This document shows positions 3,596-63,693 of a stretch of 64,000 bases of DNA, piece by piece; the stretch's first letter is position 1, and the number at the start of each line of letters is the position of its first letter. Position numbers and translations under genes: made by a program. The notes under the pieces were generated by a model. That model did not search any database and was not told the origin of the DNA. It saw only the letters and a program-made list of their open reading frames with translations. This DNA comes from Candidatus Woesearchaeota archaeon (GTDB lineage: Archaea; Nanobdellota; Nanobdellia; Woesearchaeales; 21-14-0-10-32-9): NCBI GenBank assembly GCA_046543095.1, contig JBKHAC010000002.1:2525-66524 (forward strand). Reading direction: 5' to 3'.

Positions 3596-3738
3596 GGTTT
3601 TGTCCAGAATAATACAAATAGGTGTACTGCGCAAACCAATCGAAACTGACTTGTATGTTGAACTGAGTCTATCAAATCCCTTGTTTAATTTGAGTACTTT
3701 GCTAGGCAGTATACAAAATATAGATTCTGGACAAGACC
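3596..3738 (+). repeat. Family-1 hairpin repeat (MITE-like), divergent copy
   Basis: Shares GTGTACTGCGCAAACC ... TTTGCTAGGCAGTATACAAAA with copies at 394, 21802, 31529 and 63459. Terminal arms GTCCAGAATA/TATTCTGGAC are complementary. Confidence 0.75.
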
Positions 3739-3900
3739 TTATTTTATTAATATTAGAGCCTGAGTAAGTCCTTACGCTTACCTGAGCAAGTTTTACTCTT
3801 ATAACCATAAACAAATATATTTAAGAATTTAAATTTAGTTAGGCACTCAGAATTTATTTATTGAACATTAATATGCACATATTAAAAACTAATGTGTTTA

Positions 3901-4044
3901 TTACAAATCGGGTTTAATACCTCGCTGCTTCGCAGTGACTTCAGACTCGATTTGTAATGACAGAAAATCCGCCAGCGAAAATTCGCGTAATACTTCGCAG
4001 CTCTGCTGCGCGAGATAGCGAATTTTAGGATTTTCGTTTTATTT
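3901..4044 (+). ncRNA. Family-2 structured repeat; candidate small structured RNA gene (3 copies, all on the + strand)
   Basis: Nested stems TTACAAATCGGGT/ACTCGATTTGTAA, CTGCttcGCAG, GAAAATTCGC...GCGAATTTTC and CGCAGCtctGCTGCG. Ends in a T-rich tract. Copy-to-copy differences are tolerated only as G-T(U) pairs on the + strand. Confidence 0.45.
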
Positions 4045-6219: not shown

Positions 6220-6297
6220 AAACTTTTTTTCTTTTATTTTTTCTTTTATTTTTATCAATAAAGATTTTCTATAAGTATAAATGACTTAATTAGTTTA

Positions 6298-6396
6298 AAT
6301 TACGAGCGGAAGAATCCTCGCTTTTTAGCGTTAGCTAAAAAGTTAACTGAAGGTTAACCCTTTAGGGAGGGGAAGCGCCCTCTAACTTTTTCAATT
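6298..6396 (+). repeat. Family-3 hairpin-rich repeat (short form)
   Basis: GAGCGGAAGAATCCTCGC, TTTTTAGCgttaGCTAAAAA, GTTAACCgaagGTTAACC and AGGGagggGAAGCGCCCT stems. Longer copies at 39181 and 42906. Confidence 0.8.
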
Positions 6397-6722
6397 TAAA
6401 TTTATAATAAAATAATAAATCACACTATTAAACTAAACATGAATTAAGATAATAACTTAATTTATCTATATTATTTCTTAATGCTTTCAATTAATCAACT
6501 AATACTTTAAAATAACGACTTTTTCAAATTAAACACACCTTGAAAAAATTCAATAAAAACTAATGCACATATAAAAAATTTTAAAATAACAAATGCAATC
6601 AAATTTAAACATACTAAAAAAGTTCAGAAAAAGCATTAATTTAATTAATCTAATTTTGAATCTGAAATTAAACATCTCCAACAAAGGTTTATAATTTGAA
6701 ATATAAGATAAAAAAAACTAAT

Positions 6723-7718: not shown

Positions 7719-7894
7719 TTAACAACCCACCTCTAAATATTTTTGGTCACTATTTATTTATAAATATGTCGATTTTTTCAACTTTATTTTCATTTTTTTT
7801 TCAAACTATTTAAACTATTTATTAAATTATTTTTACTTTCATGATTTATTTTCTGAATTTTATTTATTTCTTTGAATTGTTTATGTTATATGAA

Positions 7895-8028
7895 GTATAT
7901 TCGCAGTAGCGCTTTATATGACGCATAAAGATTAAAAAACTATTTGAAAATTATTTGAAATTTACTTTTAAAGCTCGAAAATTTATAATTCTCACATGTA
8001 ATTAAACTTGTTTGATTTTTCTCGTTTA
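7895..8028. repeat. Family-7 element ending in the palindrome AATTAAACTTGTTTGATT plus a T-run, located 3' of the gene at 8037
   Basis: Shares TATATTCGC(A/G)GTAGCGCTTTATATG ... CTATTTGAAAAT ... AATCAAACTTGTTTGATTTTTCTCGTTTA with 62052, 41393 and 53234. Confidence 0.7.
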
Positions 8029-20568: not shown

Positions 20569-20717
20569 TATTAAATATTTACATTAATAACAATAAAAAT
20601 CAATTTGTCCCAAATAATACAAAAAAATATACGCCGCGCAAAACTACGCAAATCAAATGAAATTCAATGACAGTAATCTAATAAAAATAATTCAATAAAA
20701 ATAATTTGATAAACAGA

Positions 20718-20880
20718 CCTCATAGAAATCCTTTTCGAACCAATAAAATCTTAATGATGCCTCGCTTCGTTTTCATGTTATTTAGATATTTGAATCGAGT
20801 CTCACATACAACGGATGTTTGATCTAGAACTTAAGCAAGATAGCATTATTATTAAAATTTTAATAGAATTTCTATGAGGC
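20718..20880 (+). repeat. Family-4 ~165-bp TIR element
   Basis: Termini CCTCATAGAAATCC ... GAATTTCTATGAGG. Copies at 29905 (-), 37908 and 48043. Confidence 0.8.
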
Positions 20881-20927
20881 TAATAAAAAGTACGTGCATA
20901 GCGCAACGAGCATCTCTTCTTTAGATG

Positions 20928-21724: not shown

Positions 21725-21801
21725 ATACTAAACATTTTTTTTCTTTTTTTCCACTTCTATTTTTTAATATTTCAAGATATGTTAATATCGCCTAAGAAAG
21801 A

Positions 21802-21946
21802 GACTTTGTCCCGAATAGTTGTTTTTTGTATACTGCCGAGCAAACCACTCAAAATAAACATTGATTTTTATAGACTCGAATTTAAACCCTAGTGAACATT
21901 GTTCGGTTTGCGCAGTATACAATTCATTGTTATTCGGGACAAAGCC
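21802..21946 (-). repeat. Family-1 hairpin repeat, inverted orientation
   Basis: Reverse complement aligns to the 31529 copy. Stem GTCCCGAATA/TATTCGGGAC carries compensatory changes. Confidence 0.85.
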
Positions 21947-21970
21947 AAGAAAAAAATTAATTTAAAAAAA

Positions 21971-24661: not shown

Positions 24662-27556
24662 TTAAAATAAAGGCAAAGTGCCTTTAGATTTATAAGGATC
24701 AATCCCAGTTAATGCACGAATATATTTTTGATTAGCTTTCCAAAACGCCGGAGGCCTACTATAAATTTCATCAAGAAATTTATTCTGCATATCTTTATGA
24801 TCCCCCAAATTATCTAAAAAATAATTAAACATACGAAAAATCAAGTCATCATTTTTAGATTTTGGCTCTTTACGATTTAAATAAACATTAAAATTATCAA
24901 TCCTACCAATAAGCCCTCTATCTTTAAAATTAACAGCATCAACCACGCCAAGACCAAAATTCAAACCAGTAAATTCACGAACATAAAGACCTTCAGTTTT
25001 AGCAACTAAACCAACACCCAAATACCTAATATGATCAGCAATAATATTATTAATATCGAGCATAGTATAATCAAAAGGAATCAACCCTCGACGAACAATT
25101 TTTCTGCCGCATTTATATTCTGCGCTAAAAATATAATTAGTCCTAGATAATTCAAAATCAGAAGACCCACCCAGATTATCAGAAAAATAAACATCCTCAA
25201 AAACATCACCCTCAACATTAAAACTTTTAAAAACATCCTCTACCCTGTAACGCTTACCAAATTCTAAGCCTGCCAAATCCATAAAATTTTTAATTTTATC
25301 AATCGCAACATGCAAAAAAGAATGATGCTTTGCAAGCAAATCATACTTCTCAACAAAATTAGAACTTTCAAGCATCCTCTCATGAATTAACTTCATGGAA
25401 TGATTATTTTTAATAATATCAATACCAGCATTAATAATTACGCCCGGAAAAACAAGCTCACCTGAAATAATTCCTTCAGTTTGTTTTTCACGTTTAAACA
25501 AAGAATAAATAATCTCATCAGGACTAAGCCTATCTTCAAGCTTTTCAAGATTATGCCGCAGGCTAAATTCATGCCTGAGCTTATATGTACCAAGACGCAT
25601 AAAATAATCACGAGAACCCATATCATAAAAATTTTTAACAGGATTATTATTAAAAACAGAAGGCAAAGGCTTATTTGATGCAATAGACTCAAGCACAGCA
25701 TTTTTTAAAAATAAATCCTTTACAACTCTACTTTTCACACCATCTTCAATAGTATAATCAATAATTTTCCAAATTAAATCAGGATTGCCTGAATTAACAT
25801 ATTCTTCCATTAAATTATAATCTAAAGATTTAGAAGAATTTGCAAAAGTTGCAAGCTTAAAATCTTTCAAAATAGGAATTCTATTTTCAACATACTTTTT
25901 AGTGTCAAGAATTTTTTTTGAACTTAAAGTCCAAAGATTCTTAGAATTATTTTTCTGTTTATATTGTTTAATTTTATTTTCAACACTATCAGAAATAATT
26001 CCTTGCCTATTTAAAGCAGAATCATTATTAAATTTAATTAAATGCTTTTGATCAAATTCCTCAAAATTATGACCAATTATATATTCATACTTCATAGAAT
26101 CAAAATTAAGCAAACCAATAAGATCAACCTCATCATCTGCAAAAACAAGCTCAACATTAGAATTAGTTAAAGAATTACGTTTTGAAAGATTATCTAAATA
26201 AATTGATTTTACATCATCATTTAACCAAGCATCCTTCGTCATATAAATCTTATTTTCAACCTCACTTTCAAGAACAGCCATAAAAACCCTACCAGATATG
26301 TCTCTTGAAGATTTATCGTAACCTGTAACTTCAATATCAATAACCGCAGAATTTTTTAAATAAAAATTAAAAGCACAATTAACAGCGCCTTCAAGAGACG
26401 ACACAGGCTTTTCACTTACAAAATGAGACAAAGCAGGAACTTTATTATTAATTTGACTTAAAAGAGTTTTCTTAGGATTAAACAACATATGTAACGGAAA
26501 AAAATCCCTGAGCTGACTAGTCGGACTATTCAAATTTAAAGGATCAAAAAGCTCCTCACGCGCACGCCTCAACTTAACATTTTTATCATCGTTTGATTTG
26601 ATTAAATCACCTAATGGTTTTAAACCACGATACTTCGTTTCACCAATTAAAATATCCTCACTTAGACTTTTCATAAAACTAATATTATTATTTGCAGTCA
26701 ATCTAACACAATACTTCACATCAAATTTACTTCTCCGTTTATGAACAACACCAAATTGATCAACATGATTTTTAAAATTACTCACTTCTTTTATTTTATT
26801 AAGATACTCGGATGCAGTTTTCTCAGAATCAAATTCAGGACCCTCATATATATTAATTCTAAACAAAGAAGAATCAAGCTCTTTTAATAAAGACTCCACA
26901 CATTTAACCTCGACAAATTTTCTTTTATAATTAACAGAAATATCGTCTTCAAAAACACCTCTTTCTTTAAGAGACTCAAAAAGATAATCTTTTTTAGAAG
27001 CTAATTCATCAAAATCAGGAATAATTTCAGTTCTCGCTAAAAACCTTTTTTTCGAATTACGAATAAAAATTTGTTTTTTTTTATCTTCATCCAAAAAAAA
27101 TTCTAAATTATGCCTATCTTCTCGATTACCACGATGCCAAATAAGAACAGTTTCACTGCCTTCACGATAAAAAGTACTATCATCATATTCATTTGAGAAC
27201 ACATTTTTACTACCGTACTTTTTTAATTCAAAAGAACCGTCAACGGACTCTCGAATCTTAGATAAAAGCTCACTTGGAGATTTAAAACCATATTTTTTCC
27301 AATCAATCTCAATGCTAGGCGTTATGTGATCCCACACATCCTCTTTTTCAAATAACGAAAAAGTTTCAGAATCATAATATCTAATTATAACTTCATTACC
27401 TTTATTAGCCTTAGGTAAAACTTCCAAAATTCTATATTTGTCCAATTTATCCTCAAGACCAGACTTATTAACTTTAGATAAACTATTTTTGAGTTCTTGA
27501 GCAGTATTATTAATTGAATTTTGCTTTGACATAAAAAAAAGGTAATTAAAAAACAT
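24662..27556 (-). CDS. Large (964 aa) protein with family-B-polymerase-like DEDDy 3'-5' exonuclease motifs. Polymerase motifs are not recognisable.
   Basis: Exo I AVIDIEVTGYD, Exo II YIIGHNFEEFDQKHL (cf. archaeal PolB ITYNGDNFDFAYL), Exo III IIDYTIEDGV (cf. YSMEDAKV), with PolB-like spacing. GKRYRV resembles the KxY motif. No SLYPS or DTD motifs. Confidence 0.4.
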   Translation of the reverse strand: MFFNYLFFMSKQNSINNTAQELKNSLSKVNKSGLEDKLDKYRILEVLPKANKGNEVIIRYYDSETFSLFEKEDVWDHITPSIEIDWKKYGFKSPSELLSKIRESVDGSFELKKYGSKNVFSNEYDDSTFYREGSETVLIWHRGNREDRHNLEFFLDEDKKKQIFIRNSKKRFLARTEIIPDFDELASKKDYLFESLKERGVFEDDISVNYKRKFVEVKCVESLLKELDSSLFRINIYEGPEFDSEKTASEYLNKIKEVSNFKNHVDQFGVVHKRRSKFDVKYCVRLTANNNISFMKSLSEDILIGETKYRGLKPLGDLIKSNDDKNVKLRRAREELFDPLNLNSPTSQLRDFFPLHMLFNPKKTLLSQINNKVPALSHFVSEKPVSSLEGAVNCAFNFYLKNSAVIDIEVTGYDKSSRDISGRVFMAVLESEVENKIYMTKDAWLNDDVKSIYLDNLSKRNSLTNSNVELVFADDEVDLIGLLNFDSMKYEYIIGHNFEEFDQKHLIKFNNDSALNRQGIISDSVENKIKQYKQKNNSKNLWTLSSKKILDTKKYVENRIPILKDFKLATFANSSKSLDYNLMEEYVNSGNPDLIWKIIDYTIEDGVKSRVVKDLFLKNAVLESIASNKPLPSVFNNNPVKNFYDMGSRDYFMRLGTYKLRHEFSLRHNLEKLEDRLSPDEIIYSLFKREKQTEGIISGELVFPGVIINAGIDIIKNNHSMKLIHERMLESSNFVEKYDLLAKHHSFLHVAIDKIKNFMDLAGLEFGKRYRVEDVFKSFNVEGDVFEDVYFSDNLGGSSDFELSRTNYIFSAEYKCGRKIVRRGLIPFDYTMLDINNIIADHIRYLGVGLVAKTEGLYVREFTGLNFGLGVVDAVNFKDRGLIGRIDNFNVYLNRKEPKSKNDDLIFRMFNYFLDNLGDHKDMQNKFLDEIYSRPPAFWKANQKYIRALTGIDPYKSKGTLPLF

Positions 27557-27883
27557 TTAAAACATTTTAGAAAAAATCTACTATGAAGTGGTTAAACGAA
27601 AAAGAGGTTCTGCACAGATTCTTTATCGTGCCTAAAATGATGAATAAACAGTTTCTCTATTTATTAAAATATTGATTAAAATCTCCTTAGAAGCTATGTC
27701 GTGAGAATGCCCCAAAACAAAAACTTTAAAAATACAAAGATATTCTTGTCAAATCAGTAGAACCATTTTGCAAGAACAATAATTATTTCTTAGTACCCCT
27801 TTGGAATATCATTGAGTATTGTTATTAGTGATTCTAAAACTAAAAACATCTAACACAAAGATGTTAGATGAAGGTGCAAAAAA

Positions 27884-28099
27884 ATGAGAAGACATGGCAA
27901 CCCTAGAGGGGGCAGAGAATTTAACGACAGACAAGATACAGCTGATAGAGGAAACTTTTCAGGAGGATTTAATAGAGGTCCAAGACAATCATTTAAAGCA
28001 ACATGCGCAAAGTGCAATGCTGAGTGTGATGTCCCATTTAAACCAACAGAAGGAAGACCTGTATATTGTAGAGATTGTTTTCAAAAAAACAAGCACTAA
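27884..28099 (+). CDS. Small RGG-rich zinc-ribbon protein (CxxC-x17-CxxC, VPF.P...RPVYC type), probably RNA-binding
   Basis: CAKCNAECDVPFKPTEGRPVYCRDCF. N-terminal R/G-rich region. SD GAAGGTG. Confidence 0.5.
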   Translation: MRRHGNPRGGREFNDRQDTADRGNFSGGFNRGPRQSFKATCAKCNAECDVPFKPTEGRPVYCRDCFQKNKH

Positions 28100-28130
28100 A
28101 AAAAATAAAAACAAATGAGGAAAAAATAAA

Positions 28131-28325
28131 ATGAAAGGAAACGTAAAATTTTTTAACGAAACAAAAGGCTTCGGATTTATAACCGGAGAAGATGGAAAAG
28201 ACTACTTCGTGCATCAATCAGGAATCGCAGAAGGAGCATACATAAATAATGATGATGAAGTCTCATTCGATGTTGAAACAGGCGATAGAGGACTTAAAGC
28301 AGTAAACGTACAAAAAGCTGAATAA
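28131..28325 (+). CDS. csp: Cold-shock protein (CspA family, S1-like OB fold)
   Basis: MKGNVKFFNETKGFGFI...DYFVHQSGI with RNP1/RNP2 motifs. 64 aa. Confidence 0.85.
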   Translation: MKGNVKFFNETKGFGFITGEDGKDYFVHQSGIAEGAYINNDDEVSFDVETGDRGLKAVNVQKAE

Positions 28326-28409
28326 ACAAAAAAAAACTTTTTATTTTTTATAATTTTTTTTATAAATTCTAAAAGTACAAAACTAAAAGTAATTTAGAGG
28401 TTAAATTAG

Positions 28410-29840
28410 ATGAACACAGAAAACAACAAGATGAAATTTGAAGATTTCAATTTCAGCCCGCAATTAATGCGCGCAATAAATAAACTAGGCTACAGCGAGC
28501 CAACAGAAATACAAGCAAAAACAATACCTGCAGTACTCGAAGGATCAGATGTACTCGGCGAGTCAGCAACAGGATCTGGAAAAACTCTCGCATTCGGCGT
28601 AGGTGCAATAGAGACATCAAAACCAAAACAAGGACTTCAAACATTAATATTAGTTCCAACAAGAGAACTCGCAGAACAAGTGATGACATCAATAAAAGAC
28701 TTAAATTCTGGAAAATCACTAAAACTTGTATCAATATACGGAGGCGTATCAATAAATCCACAAATGGACGCACTTAGATACTCCGAGATAGCAATTGCAA
28801 CACCTGGAAGATTAAAAGATCATATACAAAGAGGAACAATTAATTTATCAAATATAAAACTCTTAATACTAGACGAAGCAGACAGAATGCTTGATATGGG
28901 CTTTGCAGACGACATTGAAGATATAGTAAAACAATGCCCAAAACAAAGACAAACATTATTCTTTTCAGCAACATTCCCACCACAAGTAAAAACACTAACA
29001 AAAAAATACTTAAAAGTACCAGTACAGGTAAAAGTACAAAACCAAGTAGACCCAAAACTATTAAAACAAATATATTACGATGTTAGGCGAGGAGATAAAT
29101 TATCATTATTAATACACTTAATTAGAAAAGAGAGCGCAGATAAAATAATGATTTTTTGCAATACAAGAATAAATTCGGATTTAGTACAACAAAATCTTAA
29201 ATTTAATAAAATAAGCGCGGAAGCTCTACACGGCGGATTTACACAAGCAAGCAGAACAAAAGTAATAGATAAATTTAAAGAAGGAAAAAGTAAAGTACTA
29301 GTCTGCACAGATGTCGCTGCACGAGGAATACATGTTGATGACGTCACACACATATATAATTATGATATACCTAAAGACCATAATGATTATGTGCACAGAA
29401 TAGGAAGAACTGCAAGAGCTGGAAGTGAGGGACTAGTCATAAATTTACTATGTGATTTTGACCACCAAAACTTTTCAAGAGTTATGAGCAACTTTGATTT
29501 TAACATACCAAAAGTAGAGATGCCAAAAGATATGGAAAAAATAAAATTCAACGCGCAAAAAATAAGCGGCGGAGAAGACAGAGTGCAATCAGGCGGCAGG
29601 GGCGGACCTAGACGTGAAGGCGGAAGAGGCCCTAGCAGAGGCAGAAGCGATAATCGAAGCAGAGGACGTAGCCAAGGCGGAAGATATAATAGGGACTCAA
29701 GATCAGATAGCTCAAATGAAGGAAGAAGCGAACCTAGACGCGAAGGCAGCAGAAGCCCAAACAGAAGTTCCAGCAGAGGCCCAAGCAGAGGAAGTAGTAG
29801 AAGCCCAAATAGGCGCTCAGATAACCGTCCTCGAAACTAA
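28410..29840 (+). CDS. DEAD-box ATP-dependent RNA helicase with an Arg/Ser/Gly-rich C-terminal tail
   Basis: Q-motif, GSGKT, DEAD, SAT and HRIGRTARAG motifs. The C-terminal ~100 aa is RGG/RS low-complexity. Confidence 0.9.
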   Translation: MNTENNKMKFEDFNFSPQLMRAINKLGYSEPTEIQAKTIPAVLEGSDVLGESATGSGKTLAFGVGAIETSKPKQGLQTLILVPTRELAEQVMTSIKDLNSGKSLKLVSIYGGVSINPQMDALRYSEIAIATPGRLKDHIQRGTINLSNIKLLILDEADRMLDMGFADDIEDIVKQCPKQRQTLFFSATFPPQVKTLTKKYLKVPVQVKVQNQVDPKLLKQIYYDVRRGDKLSLLIHLIRKESADKIMIFCNTRINSDLVQQNLKFNKISAEALHGGFTQASRTKVIDKFKEGKSKVLVCTDVAARGIHVDDVTHIYNYDIPKDHNDYVHRIGRTARAGSEGLVINLLCDFDHQNFSRVMSNFDFNIPKVEMPKDMEKIKFNAQKISGGEDRVQSGGRGGPRREGGRGPSRGRSDNRSRGRSQGGRYNRDSRSDSSNEGRSEPRREGSRSPNRSSSRGPSRGSSRSPNRRSDNRPRN

Positions 29841-29904
29841 AAAACATCATTCTTTATTTTTTTAATTCATTTTTTATTAAATCAACAAAAAACGCTAATT
29901 CTTA

Positions 29905-30068
29905 GGCCTTATAGGAATCCTATTAAAATTTTAATAATGATGCTATCTTGCCTAAGTCATAGATCAAACATCTGTGGTGTGTGAGACTCGGTTCAAATGT
30001 CTAAATAATATGGAAACGGAGCATAGCATCATTAAGATTTTATTGGTTCGAAAAGGATTTCTATGGCG
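29905..30068 (-). repeat. Family-4 TIR element (inverted copy)
   Basis: Reverse complement matches 37908..38086. Confidence 0.8.
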
Positions 30069-30115
30069 CCAATTCTTAGAAAAGTATAAAAAGAGAACTT
30101 GTTTAAATAAAACTT

Positions 30116-30313
30116 ATGAAACAAAAAATAATACTCACATTAACATTTTTATGCCTTGCTATTGCAGGAATATTCGCAATAGGAATGGGATCAGGACTCA
30201 CAGGATTTGTCATAGCAGATGCAAGCCAAGAAATTACAGTGAACCAAATATTTTCTGCAAGCTTTCTATTTTTAGGACTTGCAATATTCGTCGTGGGACT
30301 TTTACATGATTGA
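30116..30313 (+). CDS. Small membrane protein (2 TM), tentative
   Basis: Two hydrophobic helices. Could also be noise. Confidence 0.25.
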   Translation: MKQKIILTLTFLCLAIAGIFAIGMGSGLTGFVIADASQEITVNQIFSASFLFLGLAIFVVGLLHD

Positions 30314-30406
30314 CGAAATAAAAATAAAGTCAATAAAAAAAAATATTATGTTAATATATAAAAGAGAAGACTAATAAAAAAAACATAAGAAAAAACAATT
30401 GAAAAA

Positions 30407-31480: not shown

Positions 31481-31528
31481 ATTGTTTAATTAATTTGTTT
31501 TATTATATTAAACTTTCTCCTAAAATAT

Positions 31529-31673
31529 GGCTCTGTCCCAAATAACAATGAAGTGTATACTGCGCAAACCGAACAATGTTCACTAGATTTTAAATCCGAG
31601 TCCATAAAAACCAATGTTTATTTTGAGTGGTTTGCTCGGCAGTATACAAAAAACAACTATTTGGGACAAAGCC
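31529..31673 (+). repeat. Family-1 hairpin repeat (reference copy)
   Basis: 145 bp with imperfect long inverted arms and an internal palindrome GAACAATGTTC. Confidence 0.85.
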
Positions 31674-31782
31674 TAAAATATACAAAACGTAACTATCGCA
31701 TAATAGAAACTTTTAAATAAACGTTCAAATTAACAAGTTTAATTAAAGCAATTAAACAAAAATGAAGCTTTAAAGATTAAAA

Positions 31783-32251: not shown

Positions 32252-33769
32252 ATGAGGTATCAATATAAAATAGCAGATACTAATATTTTTTTAATAGATC
32301 CTATAGTCGCACTATATGGTTTTGGCCCAAAAGATCAAGACACAGTTAATCACTTAATAATACCATCAAAAGTATTAAACGAGATGGACAAATTTAAAAC
32401 AGAACAGTACACTGAGCGAGGTTACAATTCAAGAGTATTTTCAAGAGAATTAAAAAAAATAACACGCGAAAAAGGAGCCTTAAGCGAACCGGTAAAACTA
32501 AGAGACAATTATTTTCTACAAGTATCTTTTGAATCAACACCCGTACCATTTACAAAGGACGAACTAATAAATGATGATTACATAATAGGCACAGCAAAAT
32601 ATTATGCAGAAAATCACTCAAATGAGAATGTTGAATTAATTACGAATGACGATTTGGTATACATTAAAGCAAGCTCTCTTGGAATTAATGTTTCTGATTG
32701 GATAGGTGCTCGAGCAGTATCAAGTATTGAAGAAAGTTATAAAGGATGGAGAACAGTTCGTGCGCCAAAGCACATATATAACAACTTAAAAGATGGCGCG
32801 TTAGATATAACAAACACGAAAATTGAAGGATTAGAAGACATTATGCCAAACGAATATATTTTATTTGTAGATGAAAATTTGCCTGAAAGTTACGAAGTAC
32901 CTATATTTAACAGCAAAAATGAAAACTCGACAGATTTCGCATTAGCAAGATACGTATCAAACATTAAAAGTTTTGAGAATGGATGTATTGTTCACGTGAA
33001 TCCAAGAAGCGCAAATAATTCATCGGTTTTATCTATAAAATCAAGAAACTACGAACAAGCATTCGCACTTGACGCACTACTAAACCCGAATATAAAACTA
33101 GTCAATCTCATAGGAATGGCAGGAACAGGAAAGACGCTACTTTCACTTGCTGCAGGAATAAACATGCTAAATATGGAAGATGAATCTAAATCAAAACAAT
33201 ATGATAGAGTGATTGCAACAAGAATGATGATATCTTCAGGAGGCCAAGAACTCGGAGCACTACCAGGGGATATAGGTGACAAAATGGATCCTTACATGGA
33301 ACCAATATATGATAATTTAAAACCAGAAATGTTTAAAAAATTCATTGATAAGAATGGAAACGCAGAACCTAGAAAAACTAAAGTTTTGCTCGAACAAAAA
33401 AAAGAAGAAATAAATGAGATATATAAGATGAATGCATTTAAAACCCATTTATTAAATAATGACAAATTAGTAATACAACCACTACAAGCAATGAGAGGCA
33501 GAAGCATAGACGGGGCTTTTTTTATAGTGACAGAAGGACAAAACCTATCGCCTTCAGAAATAAAAACAATTATTACACGAGCAGGAGAAAACACAAAAAT
33601 TGTTGTTGAAGGAGACCCAGACCAAATAGATAAAAAAGGACTAACAGATGTAATAAACGGGCTAATGCATGCATCAGAAAAATTTAAAGAACAAGAAATC
33701 TCAGCTACAGTGAAATTATTTCAAGGAGAACGAAGCGAACTTGCAACACTTGGCGGAAAACTATTATGA
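32252..33769 (+). CDS. PhoH2-type protein: N-terminal PIN domain fused to a PhoH-like ATPase
   Basis: PIN-like N-terminus (acidic residues in IADTNIFLIDP). Walker A LIGMAGTGKTLLSLAAG. Walker B FFIVTEGQNL. Confidence 0.7.
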   Translation: MRYQYKIADTNIFLIDPIVALYGFGPKDQDTVNHLIIPSKVLNEMDKFKTEQYTERGYNSRVFSRELKKITREKGALSEPVKLRDNYFLQVSFESTPVPFTKDELINDDYIIGTAKYYAENHSNENVELITNDDLVYIKASSLGINVSDWIGARAVSSIEESYKGWRTVRAPKHIYNNLKDGALDITNTKIEGLEDIMPNEYILFVDENLPESYEVPIFNSKNENSTDFALARYVSNIKSFENGCIVHVNPRSANNSSVLSIKSRNYEQAFALDALLNPNIKLVNLIGMAGTGKTLLSLAAGINMLNMEDESKSKQYDRVIATRMMISSGGQELGALPGDIGDKMDPYMEPIYDNLKPEMFKKFIDKNGNAEPRKTKVLLEQKKEEINEIYKMNAFKTHLLNNDKLVIQPLQAMRGRSIDGAFFIVTEGQNLSPSEIKTIITRAGENTKIVVEGDPDQIDKKGLTDVINGLMHASEKFKEQEISATVKLFQGERSELATLGGKLL

Positions 33770-37907: not shown

Positions 37908-38086
37908 GTCTCATAGAAATAAGGCCTCATAGAAATCCTTCTCGAACCAATAAAATCTTAATGATGCTATGCTCCGTTTCCATATTATTTAGACATTTGA
38001 ACCGAGCCCTACACACCACAGATGTTTGATCTGAGACTTAGGCAAGATAGCATCATTATTAAAATTTTAATAGGATTTCTATAAGA
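37908..38086 (+). repeat. Family-4 TIR element, with a duplicated left terminus
   Basis: GGTCTCATAGAAATAAGGCCTCATAGAAATCC ... GGATTTCTATAAG. Confidence 0.8.
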
Positions 38087-39034: not shown

Positions 39035-39180
39035 AAAATATTAAAAATTTTATGAAACTAAAACATATTTAAATTAACACAAAATAGCGCACCTCACAAA
39101 ACAAGATACTTCAAAAATACATTGAGCACTGAGACTAATGGCTCTAAAGTTCAAAGGAACAAATATATTTGTATAACTTA

Positions 39181-39370
39181 AATTACGAGCGGAAGAAATC
39201 CTCAATTTTTTTGCGCGGGGCAAAAAAATGTTACCTTTAGGCTTCAGATTTTTTCTCTCTCTAATTTGCCAAAGTTAAAGCGGAAGAAATCCTTGATTTT
39301 TAGCGTTAGCTAAAAAGTTAACCGAAGGTTAACCCTTTAGGGCGGGGAAGTGCCCTCCAACTTTTTCAAT
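39181..39370 (+). repeat. Family-3 repeat, long form (duplicated head module plus a TTTTTTTGCgcgggGCAAAAAAA hairpin)
   Basis: Aligns with 42906..43097 and with 6298..6396 over its 3' 100 nt. Confidence 0.8.
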
Positions 39371-39488
39371 TAAGCAGTATTAATTTTACACAGCACTAAA
39401 ATATTATAACACAAATTAAAAAAAATTTTATTTCTAGAGCCTCTAATATTAGCAAAATATAAATATGCGGCCATCTTCCTAAACAATT

Positions 39489-41371: not shown

Positions 41372-41392
41372 CTATTTTTTAGGTTATATAAA

Positions 41393-41480
41393 GTATATTC
41401 ACGGTAACGCGTTCATATAATACAGAAAAATCAAACTACTATTTGAAAATTTAATCAAACTTGTTTGATTTCTCTGGTTA
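41393..41480 (+). repeat. Family-7 element with the AATCAAACTTGTTTGATT palindrome, 3' of the gene ending at 41371
   Basis: GTATATTCACGGTAACGCGTTCATATAA...CTATTTGAAAATTTAATCAAACTTGTTTGATTTCTCTGG. Confidence 0.7.
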
Positions 41481-42462: not shown

Positions 42463-42488
42463 TTTTTTTAATTTTTTTATTGGTTTTA

Positions 42489-42632
42489 TTACAAATTGAG
42501 TTTAATACCTCGCTGCTTCGCAGTGACTTCAGACTCGATTTGTAATGACAGAAAATCCGCCAGCTAAAATTCGCGTCAGTACTACGCAGCTCTGCTGCGC
42601 GAGATAGCGAATTTTAGGATTTTCGTTTTATT
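42489..42632 (+). ncRNA. Family-2 structured element, copy B, ending directly at the SD of the gene at 42642
   Basis: Same stems as 3901..4044. Outer stem TTACAAATTGAGT/ACTCGATTTGTAA has a T-G wobble. Confidence 0.45.
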
Positions 42633-42887: not shown

Positions 42888-42905
42888 TTTTTTCTTTTTT
42901 TCTTT

Positions 42906-43097
42906 AAATTACGAGCGGAAGAAATCCTCAATTTTTTTGCGTCAAGGAAAAAAATGTTGCCTTTAGGCTTCAGATGTTTTCCCTCACTAATTTGCTAAAG
43001 TTAGAGCGGAAGAATCCTCGCTTTTTAGCGTTAGCTAAAAAGTTAACCGAAGGTTAACCCTTTAGGGGGGGGAAGTGCCCTCTAACTCTTTCAATTT
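42906..43097 (+). repeat. Family-3 repeat, long form; a partial extra copy at 43141..43215
   Basis: Aligns to 39181..39370. Confidence 0.8.
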
Positions 43098-47950: not shown

Positions 47951-48042
47951 TCTCTAAAGCCTCCTTATATGCGCATACGCACACAAATTATTTATCCAAC
48001 TTTATTTATAACCTCTCGACTTTAAAAATATTTCTTTTAATC

Positions 48043-48208
48043 GGACTCATAGAAATCCTTTTCGAACCAATAAAATCTTAATGATGCTATGCTCCGTTTC
48101 CATATTATTTAGACATTTGAACCGAGCCCTACACACCACAGATGTTTGATATATGACTTAGGCAAGATAGCATCATTATTAAAATTTCAATAGAATTTCT
48201 ATAAGGCC
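48043..48208 (+). repeat. Family-4 TIR element
   Basis: GGACTCATAGAAATCC ... GAATTTCTATAAGGCC. Confidence 0.8.
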
Positions 48209-54140: not shown

Positions 54141-54167
54141 TTAAATAATTTATTAAAATAAAGTTGT

Positions 54168-54294
54168 GGACAAAATTTTTTGGTAATACCACGAACTTCG
54201 AGCATTATTTGGTTCGTGGTGCCGAGTCTATTTAATTCGTGTTTAAATCCATATTGCTCGTTTAGGTATTACCAACTTTTTATATCCTTTACTA
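54168..54294 (+). repeat. Family-5 TIR element
   Basis: GGTAATACCACGAACTTCGAG ... CTCGTTTAGGTATTACC. Copies at 55265, 57523 (head) and 58228 (tail). Confidence 0.75.
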
Positions 54295-54969: not shown

Positions 54970-55036
54970 AACTACAAGGATAAAAAAACAATTTTTCTAA
55001 CAATACCTGCATAGCGTAGACGAGCAAAGAGTTTTA

Positions 55037-55180
55037 TTACAAATTGGGTTTAATACCCCGCTGCTTCGCAGTGACTTCAGACTCGATTTGTAATGACAGA
55101 AAATCCGCCAGCGAAAATTCGCGTCAGTACTCCGCAGCTCTGCTGCGCGAGATAGCGAATTTTAGGATTTTCGTTTTATT
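55037..55180 (+). ncRNA. Family-2 structured element, copy C
   Basis: Outer stem TTACAAATTGGGT/ACTCGATTTGTAA (two G-T wobbles). Inner stems conserved. Confidence 0.45.
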
Positions 55181-55195
55181 TCGTTTTTAAAACCG

Positions 55196-55264: not shown

Positions 55265-55395
55265 TGGACAAAAGTTTTTGATAATGCCACGAGCTTCGCA
55301 TATTATTTAGTATATGGCACCGAGTCTATCGAATTCGTATTTGAATTCGTATTGCTCTTTTAGGCATTACCAACTTTTTATGTCCTCAACTATTT
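55265..55395 (+). repeat. Family-5 TIR element (intact reference copy)
   Basis: GACAAAAGTTTTTGATAATGCCACGAGCTTCGC ... GTATTGCTCTTTTAGGCATTACCAACTTTTTATGTCCTCAACTA. Confidence 0.75.
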
Positions 55396-57522: not shown

Positions 57523-57640
57523 GACAAAAGTTTTTGATAATGCCACGAGCTTCGCATATTGGTTGGTTTGTGGCGCCGAGCATGTTGAATTCGTGTTTAA
57601 ATTTGTATTGCCCGCCAGAGGCTCTCTTAATTTTAAAAAC
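57523..57640 (+). repeat. Family-5 element head, interrupted at 57612..57622
   Basis: Matches 55265..55375, then diverges at CCGCCAGAGGC. Confidence 0.7.
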
Positions 57641-62021: not shown

Positions 62022-62051
62022 AAAACCAGTTCTTTTTTATGTCATATAAAT

Positions 62052-62139
62052 TATATTCGCGTTAGCGCTTTATATGCCACACAAAAATCAAACAACTATT
62101 TAAAAAATTTAATCAAACTTATTTGATTTTTCTCGTTTA
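62052..62139 (+). repeat. Family-7 element with the AATCAAACTTATTTGATT palindrome, between the ferredoxin and the U32 gene
   Basis: TATATTCGCGTTAGCGCTTTATATGCCACACAAAA ... AATCAAACTTATTTGATTTTTCTCGTTTA. Confidence 0.7.
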
Positions 62140-63449: not shown

Positions 63450-63458
63450 TGATAAATC

Positions 63459-63603
63459 TGCTCCGCCCCAAATAACAATGAAGTGTATACTGCGCAAACC
63501 GAACAATGTTCACTAGATTTTAAATCCGAGTCCATAAAAACCAATGTTTATTTTGAGTGATTTGCTCGGCAGTATACAAAAAACAACTATTTGGGACAAA
63601 ACC
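63459..63603 (+). repeat. Family-1 hairpin repeat
   Basis: Near-identical to 31529..31673 (a few substitutions). Confidence 0.85.
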
Positions 63604-63693
63604 GATAAATTCAAATCTTTAAAAATAATTTTTTACTTAAAAATAGTTAAGGTCTTAGAAAGATTTATATAATATTTATCAATCAAAAAAAAT

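Follow-up and report, generated by a model that had tools for sequence, protein, structure and literature searches.

A putative RNA-chaperone and helicase gene module behind a conserved leader in a woesearchaeotal archaeon

Three genes for predicted RNA-binding and RNA-remodelling proteins

We use comparative sequence analysis of a 64,000-nt stretch of DNA from a Candidatus Woesearchaeota archaeon (contig JBKHAC010000002.1 of GCA_046543095.1; the whole stretch is hereafter the window) to study a cluster of three co-oriented genes, which encode in this order a small zinc-ribbon protein, a cold-shock protein (Csp) and a DEAD-box RNA helicase, together with the noncoding region in front of them. 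The host is a metagenome-assembled genome (MAG) from the DPANN archaea, and all three proteins carry NCBI names from Woesearchaeota MAGs. An identical helicase is encoded on NCBI contig CAYWYM010000012.1 of GCA_964462285.1, which is the same DNA as the window and on which the neighbours include archaeal flagellins and RadA. The coding features of the cluster are as follows.

27884–28099 (+): 71-aa zinc-ribbon protein, rich in arginine-glycine (RG), of the CxxC-x17-CxxC type (Pfam, NCBIfam, AlphaFold2)
28131–28325 (+): 64-aa bacterial-type cold-shock protein (PF00313)
28410–29549 (+): DEAD-box RNA helicase core, two RecA-like domains (Pfam, motif patterns)
29550–29840 (+): basic C-terminal helicase tail rich in R, S and G, 96 aa plus stop codon (composition)

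The initial annotation had described three consecutive same-strand RNA-chaperone genes, and the Pfam and NCBIfam matches bear this out. Its RGG label fits less well, since each protein holds one literal RGG; judged by composition, the zinc-ribbon protein and the helicase tail are RG/RS-rich (RS, arginine-serine) and not classic RGG-box proteins. The net charges are −5 for the acidic Csp, +7 for the zinc-ribbon protein and +16 for the helicase tail.

The Csp matches PF00313 over residues 1–62 of its 64 (E 2e-18, 66.6 bits against a threshold of 27), is 47% identical to B. subtilis CspB, and finds its best relatives in the PDB among bacterial Csps (E 9e-14). Its motifs RNP1 (KGFGFI, residues 12–17) and RNP2 (YFVHQ, residues 25–29) show little or no variation among 22 DPANN homologues. 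Because the score falls under all NCBIfam equivalog cut-offs (for CspE, 67 against 120), no bacterial Csp paralogue name can be assigned. Bacterial-type csp genes are absent from most archaea (PMC5572242), in agreement with their having been called patchy for this locus; within Woesearchaeota and Pacearchaeota, however, Csp is common. In Lake Dziani Dzaha, Mayotte, cold-shock proteins are reported to count among the ten woesearchaeotal genes with the highest in-situ expression (PMC11606122), which suits a constitutive chaperone no less well than a cold-specific one. As a side observation, several DPANN Csps (P0132, P0155, P0160, P0177, P0182, P0221, P0236 and P0240) end in acidic tails of 35–45 aa rich in E, A and P, which are unusual for Csps and contrast in charge with the helicases and zinc-ribbon proteins encoded beside them, whose tails are basic.

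The helicase (476 aa, 28410–29840) matches PF00270 at 169.5 bits and PF00271 at 113.4 bits. Pattern searches place motif Q at residue 10, SATGSGKT (I) at 52, PTRELA (Ia) at 83, DEAD (II) at 155, TDVAARGIH (V) at 300 and HRIGRTAR (VI) at 329, and the SAT of motif III was identified by eye in ...LFFSATFPP.... The protein falls outside the named bacterial subfamilies (CshA, DeaD/CsdA, RhlE, DbpA, SrmB, RhlB), missing every curated cut-off (CshA 403.5 against 646, CsdA 348 against 890, DbpA 385 against 524), and its nearest relatives are DPANN archaeal helicases. The composition of the tail (26% R, 22% S, 18% G) recurs in the basic R/G/S-rich tails, median length 47 aa, of 117 DPANN helicase homologues.

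Residues 34–70 of the zinc-ribbon protein match both PF23477 (zf_Tbcl_2; E 8e-18, 64.2 bits against a cut-off of 27) and TIGR04272 (CxxC-x17-CxxC; 65.6 bits against a cut-off of 36). The cysteines of this domain of about 37 aa are laid out as C41-x2-C44-x17-C62-x2-C65, the family core VPFKPTEGRPVYC is invariant, and the N-terminal half of the protein is rich in R, G and N (21% R, 18% G). The AlphaFold2 model has a predicted local distance difference test score (pLDDT) of 70.6 overall and 78–91 across the domain; a hidden Markov model search of the PDB with the family found no solved relative. The family counts 7073 representatives at 50% identity and is abundant in methanogens, Asgard relatives, DPANN and the candidate phyla radiation (CPR). 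Many of its members are chains of two to five zinc ribbons with RG/RS-rich linkers between them, an architecture typical of RNA-binding proteins, and for the protein in the window we predict RNA binding as well. Members from Methanosarcina mazei are small and readily detected, and two of them bind zinc by inductively coupled plasma mass spectrometry (PMC12704099). Database records for the family need some care: the NCBI annotation of the identical contig replaces the zinc-ribbon gene with a wrong-frame 74-aa ORF (open reading frame; 27894–28118, +) that has no Pfam match, while an independent assembly annotates the correct 71-aa gene, and public records often mislabel family members as 'DNA-directed RNA polymerase'.

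Linkage of the genes across archaea

We compared the locus with other archaeal loci, which we cite by number where they have to be told apart. Relatives' loci were fetched around the closest Csp and helicase homologues (L083, L163, L167–L170, L172 and L173). A Csp survey covers 80 metagenomic loci centred on a DPANN-type Csp (59–75% identical) with 1.5 kb on either side, 177 kb of flanks in all, and a zinc-ribbon survey takes in the surroundings of CxxC-x17-CxxC genes at 80 loci in archaeal genomes, most of the loci coming from lineages outside DPANN (Methanoregula and other methanogens, Bathyarchaeia, Hadarchaeota).

The closest relative, L172 (Csp 80–82% identical), has leader, zinc-ribbon gene, csp and helicase just as in the window, and csp followed by the helicase is kept in the close relatives L167, L168–L170, L173, L083 and L163. 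Synteny with L167 runs through the large minus-strand gene, the spacer, csp, the helicase, a 65-aa ORF and GMP reductase (−), and L168, L169, L170 and L083 have csp, helicase, 65-aa ORF, GMP reductase and PhoH2 in common. In the window the 65-aa ORF, a predicted membrane protein, lies directly 3' of the helicase (30116–30313, +; syntenic in L167, L168 and L169), and a PIN-PhoH2 protein of RNA helicase/nuclease type lies 2.4 kb downstream (32252–33769, +; syntenic in L169 and L170).

Beyond these relatives, a DEAD-box helicase lies within 1.5 kb of csp in 13 of the 80 loci in the Csp survey, co-oriented with it in 11 of the 13 and in both orders. A CxxC-x17-CxxC gene is found in 8/80, a second small zinc-ribbon gene in 13/80, and at least one partner in 25/80. 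With a helicase gene at about 1–2 per Mb, our own estimate of the chance expectation is roughly 0.3 helicase neighbours. That both orders occur (helicase-csp and csp-helicase) argues for selection over shared ancestry alone. In the zinc-ribbon survey, four of the 80 loci have a DEAD-box helicase within about 1.1 kb (L011, L019, L040, L074), and in L011, from Bathyarchaeia, a zinc ribbon is fused to the helicase C-terminus with a free copy adjacent.

The earlier suggestion that this linkage points to an RNA module is thus upheld by the wider comparison: csp, helicase and zinc-ribbon genes are recurrent neighbours in DPANN with changing order and orientation, L172 repeats the order of the window, and in one Bathyarchaeia locus the zinc ribbon and the helicase are one protein. 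These gene arrangements support the view that the three genes encode functionally linked RNA-binding and remodelling proteins. Our literature search found no paper combining DPANN, cold-shock protein and DEAD-box.

Other small zinc-ribbon genes were seen on the way. Tandem CxxC-x17-CxxC genes stand immediately upstream of aIF1A, an OB-fold RNA binder, in Methanosarcinales/Methanocellales (L061, L062, L065, L079). The second zinc-ribbon ORF counted above is about 40–55 aa long with four cysteines (MVDYKIVKYCRxCKKRFVVNKGESKKxYCxxC) and sits 4–56 nt upstream of csp, co-oriented with it (L084, L085, L087, L090, L098, L099, L104, L105, L107, L113, L119, L134, L153); it matches no Pfam family above threshold and has no copy in the window. 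In L110 and L130, yet another zinc-ribbon ORF lies upstream of csp.

Promoters and the predicted transcript start

The region in front of the cluster separates it from a gene on the other strand and holds the following features.

27533–27883 (no strand): divergent intergenic spacer with two promoters (ORF list, NCBI gene calls, divergent-spacer statistics)
27555–27562 (−): TATA box TTTTAAAT of the upstream gene, 30 nt from ATG 27532 (sequence)
27725–27734 (+): predicted operon TATA, cTTTAAAAATA, with an A-rich stretch upstream resembling a B recognition element (BRE) (CTTTA.AA invariant in 6/6 leaders; motif scan)
27756–27883 (+): predicted 5' untranslated region (UTR) of about 127 nt, transcription start site (TSS) inferred at 27755–27758 (TATA rule, TAGAA, nhmmer)
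27872–27876 (+): Shine-Dalgarno-like (SD) AGGTG, 7 nt 5' of the ATG (sequence; GAAGGTGCAAA kept in L172)

The upstream gene (24662–27556, −) has its likelier start at ATG 27532, which gives the 956-aa form that NCBI also calls. This large neighbour (956–964 aa) has no Pfam or NCBIfam match, and a 934-aa counterpart occupies the same position in L167. The noncoding stretch had been taken for a 330-bp leader, long for such a compact genome; it turns out to be a divergent spacer of typical size (327–351 nt, against a median of 353 nt for the 15 divergent spacers in the window). A long leader is nevertheless likely, judged from its conservation and its promoter, with a predicted length of about 127 nt and not 330 nt.

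Our estimate of where the transcript begins relies on a ruler internal to the window. Seven genes lacking an SD have the first T of a BRE/TATA-like motif 30–33 nt before their ATG (first T/ATG: 9817/9850, 12838/12807, 37070/37102, 38103/38133, 50013/49980, 57501/57470 and 63664/63694). Read as leaderless mRNAs, they calibrate the distance from TATA to TSS at 30–33 nt, a ruler which allows TSS prediction across this genome. It predicts a leaderless mRNA for the minus-strand gene (ATG 27532) and a start at 27755–27758 for the operon. The resulting 5'UTR is among the longest of the scanned promoter-gene pairs, most of which imply 0–49 nt; one other long pair (TATA 21013 to ATG 21140) implies about 97 nt. 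Many genes across the window look leaderless by this spacing, others have an SD and a TATA-ATG spacing of 44–79 nt, and the two kinds of mRNA seem to coexist in this genome. The spacer also holds a small ORF (27583–27675, 30 aa by eye), which was dropped as it is not conserved in L167.

A conserved and structured leader

Within the predicted 5'UTR we distinguish three structural features.

27758–27836 (+): long 5'-terminal hairpin domain, closed by UAGAA (27758–27762)/UUCUA (27832–27836) (six folds)
27783–27826 (+): conserved core of the long hairpin, TTATTTCTTAGTACC..GGAATATCATTGAGTATTGTTATT (leader comparison)
27847–27870 (+): SD-adjacent hairpin, a fully paired 9-bp stem with a loop of 6 nt (inverted-repeat search, folding, relatives)

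The leader recurs in L167, L168, L169, L172 and L173. Common to all six sequences are CTTTA.AA, a TAGAA 31–33 nt past the start of the TATA, and a block TTTATTTCTYAGTA..GGAATA..; the conserved TAGAA coincides with the predicted 5' end. A downstream TTCTAA falls in the same alignment columns in the window, L172, L168 and L169, and in L167 and L173 a TTCTAA or TCTCTAA falls in other columns. Between the TATA and the SD-proximal hairpin, the leader of the window is 68–80% identical to those of its relatives, compared with 15–67% at fourfold sites of the helicase gene and 48–60% in the csp-helicase spacer; for L168/L169, the leader is 69% identical and the fourfold sites 15–22%. By these measures, conservation of the leader across five related lineages clearly exceeds that of neutral sites. 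A profile search with nhmmer matches solely the six closely related loci (E 3e-21 to 6e-33). The gene behind the leader is the zinc-ribbon gene in the window and L172 and csp itself in the others, so the zinc-ribbon gene has been inserted or deleted exactly between leader and csp.

When the six leaders are folded singly from TAGAA to TTCTAA, each forms one long hairpin (z −1.5 to −3.6), the apex of which is the conserved UAUUUC/GGAAUA stem. A second helix preserves its pairing by eye, as CAUU/AGUG in the window, CAAAAA/UUUUUG in L172 and CAU/AUG in L169, a comparison of six related sequences with no formal test. In a scan of 27400–30400, no Rfam family reaches its gathering score, and at E up to 10 the scan gives solely chance-level snoRNA/CRISPR matches (E above 3); ARAGORN finds no tRNA in the leader or downstream. 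A weak SNORD58-like match at 27774–27825 was set aside, there being no C or D box by eye.

The shorter hairpin has arms CATCTAACA (27847–27855) and TGTTAGATG (27862–27870) with three G:C pairs out of nine, folds at −10.0 kcal/mol at 37 °C, and ends 2 nt before AGGTG, with the ATG at 27884. It had been noted before as a perfect hairpin immediately 5' of the SD, which it is, though its loop has 6 nt (CAAAGA) and not 5. Perfect hairpins of at least 9 bp are not rare in the window (10, against 4.5 ± 2.4 in shuffles), so that the significance of this one comes from comparison with relatives. At the same position, L167 has CAAGGT-gtaaaa-ACCTTG (−8.0 kcal/mol), L168/L169 a G+C-rich hairpin (−10 kcal/mol), and L172 a weaker one (−5.8 kcal/mol). 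The hairpins of the four lineages are mutually unrelated in sequence and all lie within about 20 nt upstream of the SD; as background, 6.1% of 489 comparable upstream windows reach −7.5 kcal/mol or lower. A structure that recurs while its sequence changes favours a role at the RNA level over a DNA operator. It does not look like an intrinsic terminator or attenuator, the stem being poor in G:C and followed by AAGGTGCAAAAAAATG with no T-run.

A different leader theme was observed in other DPANN csp operons (L085, L096, L097, L106, L122, L129, L130 with two copies, and L161): (U)AUCAGRR about 20 nt past the TATA, then UUCUGA 30–100 nt further on and able to pair with it. Some of these leaders enclose a small hairpin UUGAC-uauuu-GUCAA, which varies as UCGAC/GUCGA, and the UCAGRR/UUCUGA theme may represent a broader family of csp 5'UTR structures. 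The leader in the window was considered as a member; it has ATCAG at the same place, the CUGA partner is absent, and the match is not strict.

Transcription units and a proposed model

Two further features bear on how the genes would be transcribed.

28326–28409 (+): csp-helicase spacer of 84 nt with T-runs at 28338–28342, 28344–28349 and 28354–28361 (5, 6 and 8 T) (sequence)
28359–28366 (+): TATA-like TTTATAAA, some 50 nt 5' of the helicase start codon (sequence)

The zinc-ribbon gene and csp are probably co-transcribed, because the 31-nt spacer between them holds no T-run; GAGG precedes csp. Oligo-T tracts terminate archaeal transcription, and the csp-helicase spacer may combine a partial terminator with an internal promoter. 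Partial termination and a weak internal promoter would leave the helicase far less abundant than Csp and the zinc-ribbon protein. The corresponding spacer of L169 is just 36 nt long without a T-run, so csp and helicase are probably co-transcribed there.

We propose, with moderate confidence in the model as a whole, that the locus is an RNA-chaperone and helicase module with a stabilising or autoregulatory leader. A strong BRE/TATA promoter (27725–27734) would start the transcript near 27756. Its 5'UTR would fold into the long hairpin from the very 5' end (27758–27836) and then the short hairpin (27847–27870), which reaches up to the ribosome-binding site. The first two genes would supply small and probably abundant RNA binders, the basic RG-rich zinc-ribbon protein and the acidic Csp, after which the T-rich spacer probably passes part of transcription or adds a promoter of its own, and the helicase with its basic, presumably disordered tail would follow. 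Csp and zinc-ribbon protein would bind single-stranded RNA and keep it unfolded, the helicase would actively unwind duplexes, and the zinc-ribbon/RG module would be a detachable form of the RNA-tethering C-terminal extension that is fused on other archaeal DEAD-box helicases. A hairpin at the first transcribed nucleotides is a classical protection of mRNA from 5'-end-dependent decay; most likely, we infer, the leader shields its mRNA in this way and/or serves as a feedback site for the encoded RNA binders, and a role as a thermometer that would free the SD by melting is improbable.

Several points weigh against this model. The TSS, the co-transcription and any regulation are predictions from sequence alone. 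RNAalifold on two MAFFT alignments of the leaders, in which the A-rich and U-rich arms are misaligned, returns an 8-pair apex stem alone, at about 0 kcal/mol and with no compensatory pairs, so that the long-hairpin model rests on six related sequences folded one by one; L173 has the leader without the SD-proximal hairpin. A Foldseek search of the PDB with the zinc-ribbon model gives nothing under E 0.4, and for the M. mazei proteins the function was left open, a role in transcription being proposed by the authors (PMC12704099). No partner lies within 1.5 kb in 55/80 of the Csp loci, many of them on short contigs, and of the Csp loci with full flanks 9/30 have a partner. In the zinc-ribbon survey a Csp lies within 5 kb in 0/80 loci, which makes the gene triple a DPANN speciality.

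Figures of this kind are what would be expected if three housekeeping nucleic-acid-binding genes adjoined by chance or ancestry and the leader were kept through close kinship: partners are absent from most Csp loci and from almost all zinc-ribbon loci, the leader family does not extend beyond one narrow lineage, and RNAalifold reports no covariation. Yet a helicase next to csp is about 50-fold more frequent than our chance estimate, in both orders and orientations, the fusion of zinc ribbon and helicase occurs in a different phylum, and the identity of the leader is far above that of fourfold sites, for example in L168/L169. We therefore regard mere coincidence as unlikely.

Alternative roles for the hairpin beside the ribosome-binding site

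The initial annotation proposed that the leader could act as an RNA thermosensor as in cspA, that is, it would refold with temperature and the hairpin adjacent to the SD would govern cold-specific translation of the operon. Some of the evidence does point this way, since a conserved 5'UTR of predicted long extent in front of a csp operon recalls E. coli cspA (PMC6386945, PMC9947658), several lineages have a hairpin just 5' of the SD, and the predicted minimum free energy structure of the mid-UTR differs between 4 °C and 37 °C. The SD and the ATG, however, lie outside the stem, which is not the layout of an SD-occluding thermometer of the ROSE or fourU type, the sequence of the hairpin is unconserved, and L173 does without it. 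In silico, ViennaRNA partition functions over 4–50 °C show no switch: the unpaired probability of the SD moves from 0.34 to 0.40 and is flat at 0.34–0.35 between 4 and 37 °C, there is no consistent trend over five relatives, and the predicted accessibility of the AUG in the window falls in the cold (0.63 to 0.17), the wrong direction for cold-specific translation. No cold-box-like element was identified in the leader, and the place of csp among the top ten woesearchaeotal genes in Lake Dziani Dzaha (PMC11606122) also speaks against a cold-specific switch. The thermosensor is thus without computational support, in-silico folding being weak evidence in either case, and we consider it quite unlikely.

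That the palindrome is instead a DNA operator, at which a dimeric transcription factor binds CATCTAACA-N6-TGTTAGATG and represses the operon, is very improbable. In its favour, two perfectly matched 9-bp arms around a 6-bp spacer have typical operator geometry, and the half-site occurs four times in the window against 0.73 expected. Against it, the predicted TSS is some 90 nt upstream of the palindrome, the window has no second copy of the full site, and the two further half-sites, one inside a coding ORF and one intergenic, lack a paired arm and look accidental. At this position relatives have hairpins of entirely different sequence, a pattern expected of an RNA structure, not of a conserved protein-DNA contact. 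A regulon built on the palindrome or its half-site was abandoned because the full site is unique and the extra half-sites resemble chance.

What is new in the module of chaperones, helicase and stabilising or autoregulatory leader is not its component families, which are known, but the recurrent three-way neighbourhood, the functional hint for the zinc ribbon and the lineage-specific archaeal leader. The leader is a defined candidate 5'UTR element in DPANN, archaea which have not yet been grown alone and whose gene regulation is essentially unstudied. For the very widespread zinc-ribbon family, of which so far solely zinc binding has been shown (PMC12704099), the neighbourhood suggests a testable function in RNA binding or as a helicase cofactor. 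A bolder and quite tentative idea is that these zinc-ribbon proteins might be dedicated cofactors that bind RNA and so hold DEAD-box helicases and OB-fold chaperones (Csp, aIF1A) to it, with the leader as the autoregulatory target of the trio; if true, they would be a split prokaryotic counterpart of eukaryotic proteins that join a cold-shock domain (CSD), Gly-rich segments and zinc knuckles.

Interspersed repeats in the window

Directly downstream of the helicase lies an element of about 165 nt resembling a miniature inverted-repeat transposable element (MITE; 29899–30074, +), one of four copies in the window that are 85–96% identical (the others at about 20696–20886, 37922–38085 and 48023–48208, all on the minus strand). 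Its ends are 16-bp inverted repeats (GGCCTTATAGAAATCC / GGATTTCTATGAGGCC), and direct duplications flank it, such as the AATTCTTAG that borders the 29905 copy on either side. The element folds as a long hairpin (z −2.7 and −3.4) and is absent from the syntenic spacer of L167.

At least five further intergenic repeat families of 75–195 nt bring the total, with the MITE-like family, to more than 20 copies in 64 kb, a number unexpectedly high for a small DPANN genome. Family 1 lies at 387–560, 21794–21952, 31523–31679 and 63454–63625, with a diverged copy at 3622–3718; family 2 at 3897–4044, 42483–42632 and 55031–55181; family 3, which contains a repeated hairpin CTTTTTAGC-gtta-GCTAAAAAG, at 6296–6397, 39178–39371 and 42904–43097; family 4 at 7876–7952, 41374–41479 and 62033–62137; and family 5 at 54167–54288, 55265–55386 and 57523–57611. 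Copies of family 1 carry TATA-like motifs upstream of genes 597, 31783 and 63694, so this family may deliver promoters.

Comparison with known systems

Csps and DEAD-box helicases are textbook bacterial partners in RNA-structure stress, and their occurrence in an archaeon is in itself unsurprising. The bacterial pairs, CspA with CsdA/DeaD in E. coli and CspB with CshA or CshB in B. subtilis, belong to the same two families as the proteins in the window and have in common with them a CSD with the KGFGFI RNP1, a DEAD-box core with a basic C-terminal extension, and a long 5'UTR upstream of csp, which in the window is predicted; the expected split of labour, passive RNA melting by one and ATP-driven unwinding by the other, would also be the same. 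The window differs in its archaeal host, its BRE/TATA promoter, the clustering of the genes, the zinc-ribbon protein as a third partner, and in that no cold box was found. To our knowledge, csp and DEAD-box helicase genes are unlinked in the bacterial models.

A second comparison is with archaeal DEAD-box helicases that are cold-regulated and have long 5'UTRs, namely DeaD of Methanococcoides burtonii and Tk-DeaD of Thermococcus kodakarensis. Those systems combine an archaeal DEAD-box helicase, low-temperature physiology and leader-dependent regulation, whereas in the window the long leader precedes the zinc-ribbon gene and csp, and the helicase has a short predicted UTR of its own. We know of no bacterial-type Csp or operon partner in M. 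burtonii or T. kodakarensis.

Eukaryotic CSD proteins with Gly/Arg-rich regions and zinc knuckles, such as AtCSP3 and WCSP1 of plants and Lin28, use this combination for RNA chaperoning. The likeness lies in the parts, a CSD, a Gly/Arg-rich low-complexity segment and a small Cys-rich zinc module; in the window these are separate polypeptides, the zinc module is a C4 CxxC-x17-CxxC ribbon and not a CCHC knuckle, and no homology is implied.

The thermosensor mRNA of E. coli cspA has a 5'UTR of about 160 nt (PMC6386945, PMC9947658). Like it, the window is predicted to have a long, conserved and structured leader in front of csp, for which autoregulation by an encoded RNA binder is plausible; unlike it, the leader is non-homologous, its SD shows no temperature-dependent opening in silico, and it precedes the zinc-ribbon gene and not csp. 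The M. mazei CxxC-x17-CxxC proteins, finally, are of the same family as the zinc-ribbon protein in the window and share its invariant core. Unlike them, the window gene shares a putative operon with csp and the helicase gene; this setting, and the fusion of the domain to a helicase in another archaeon, point to RNA instead of transcription as the business of the zinc ribbon.

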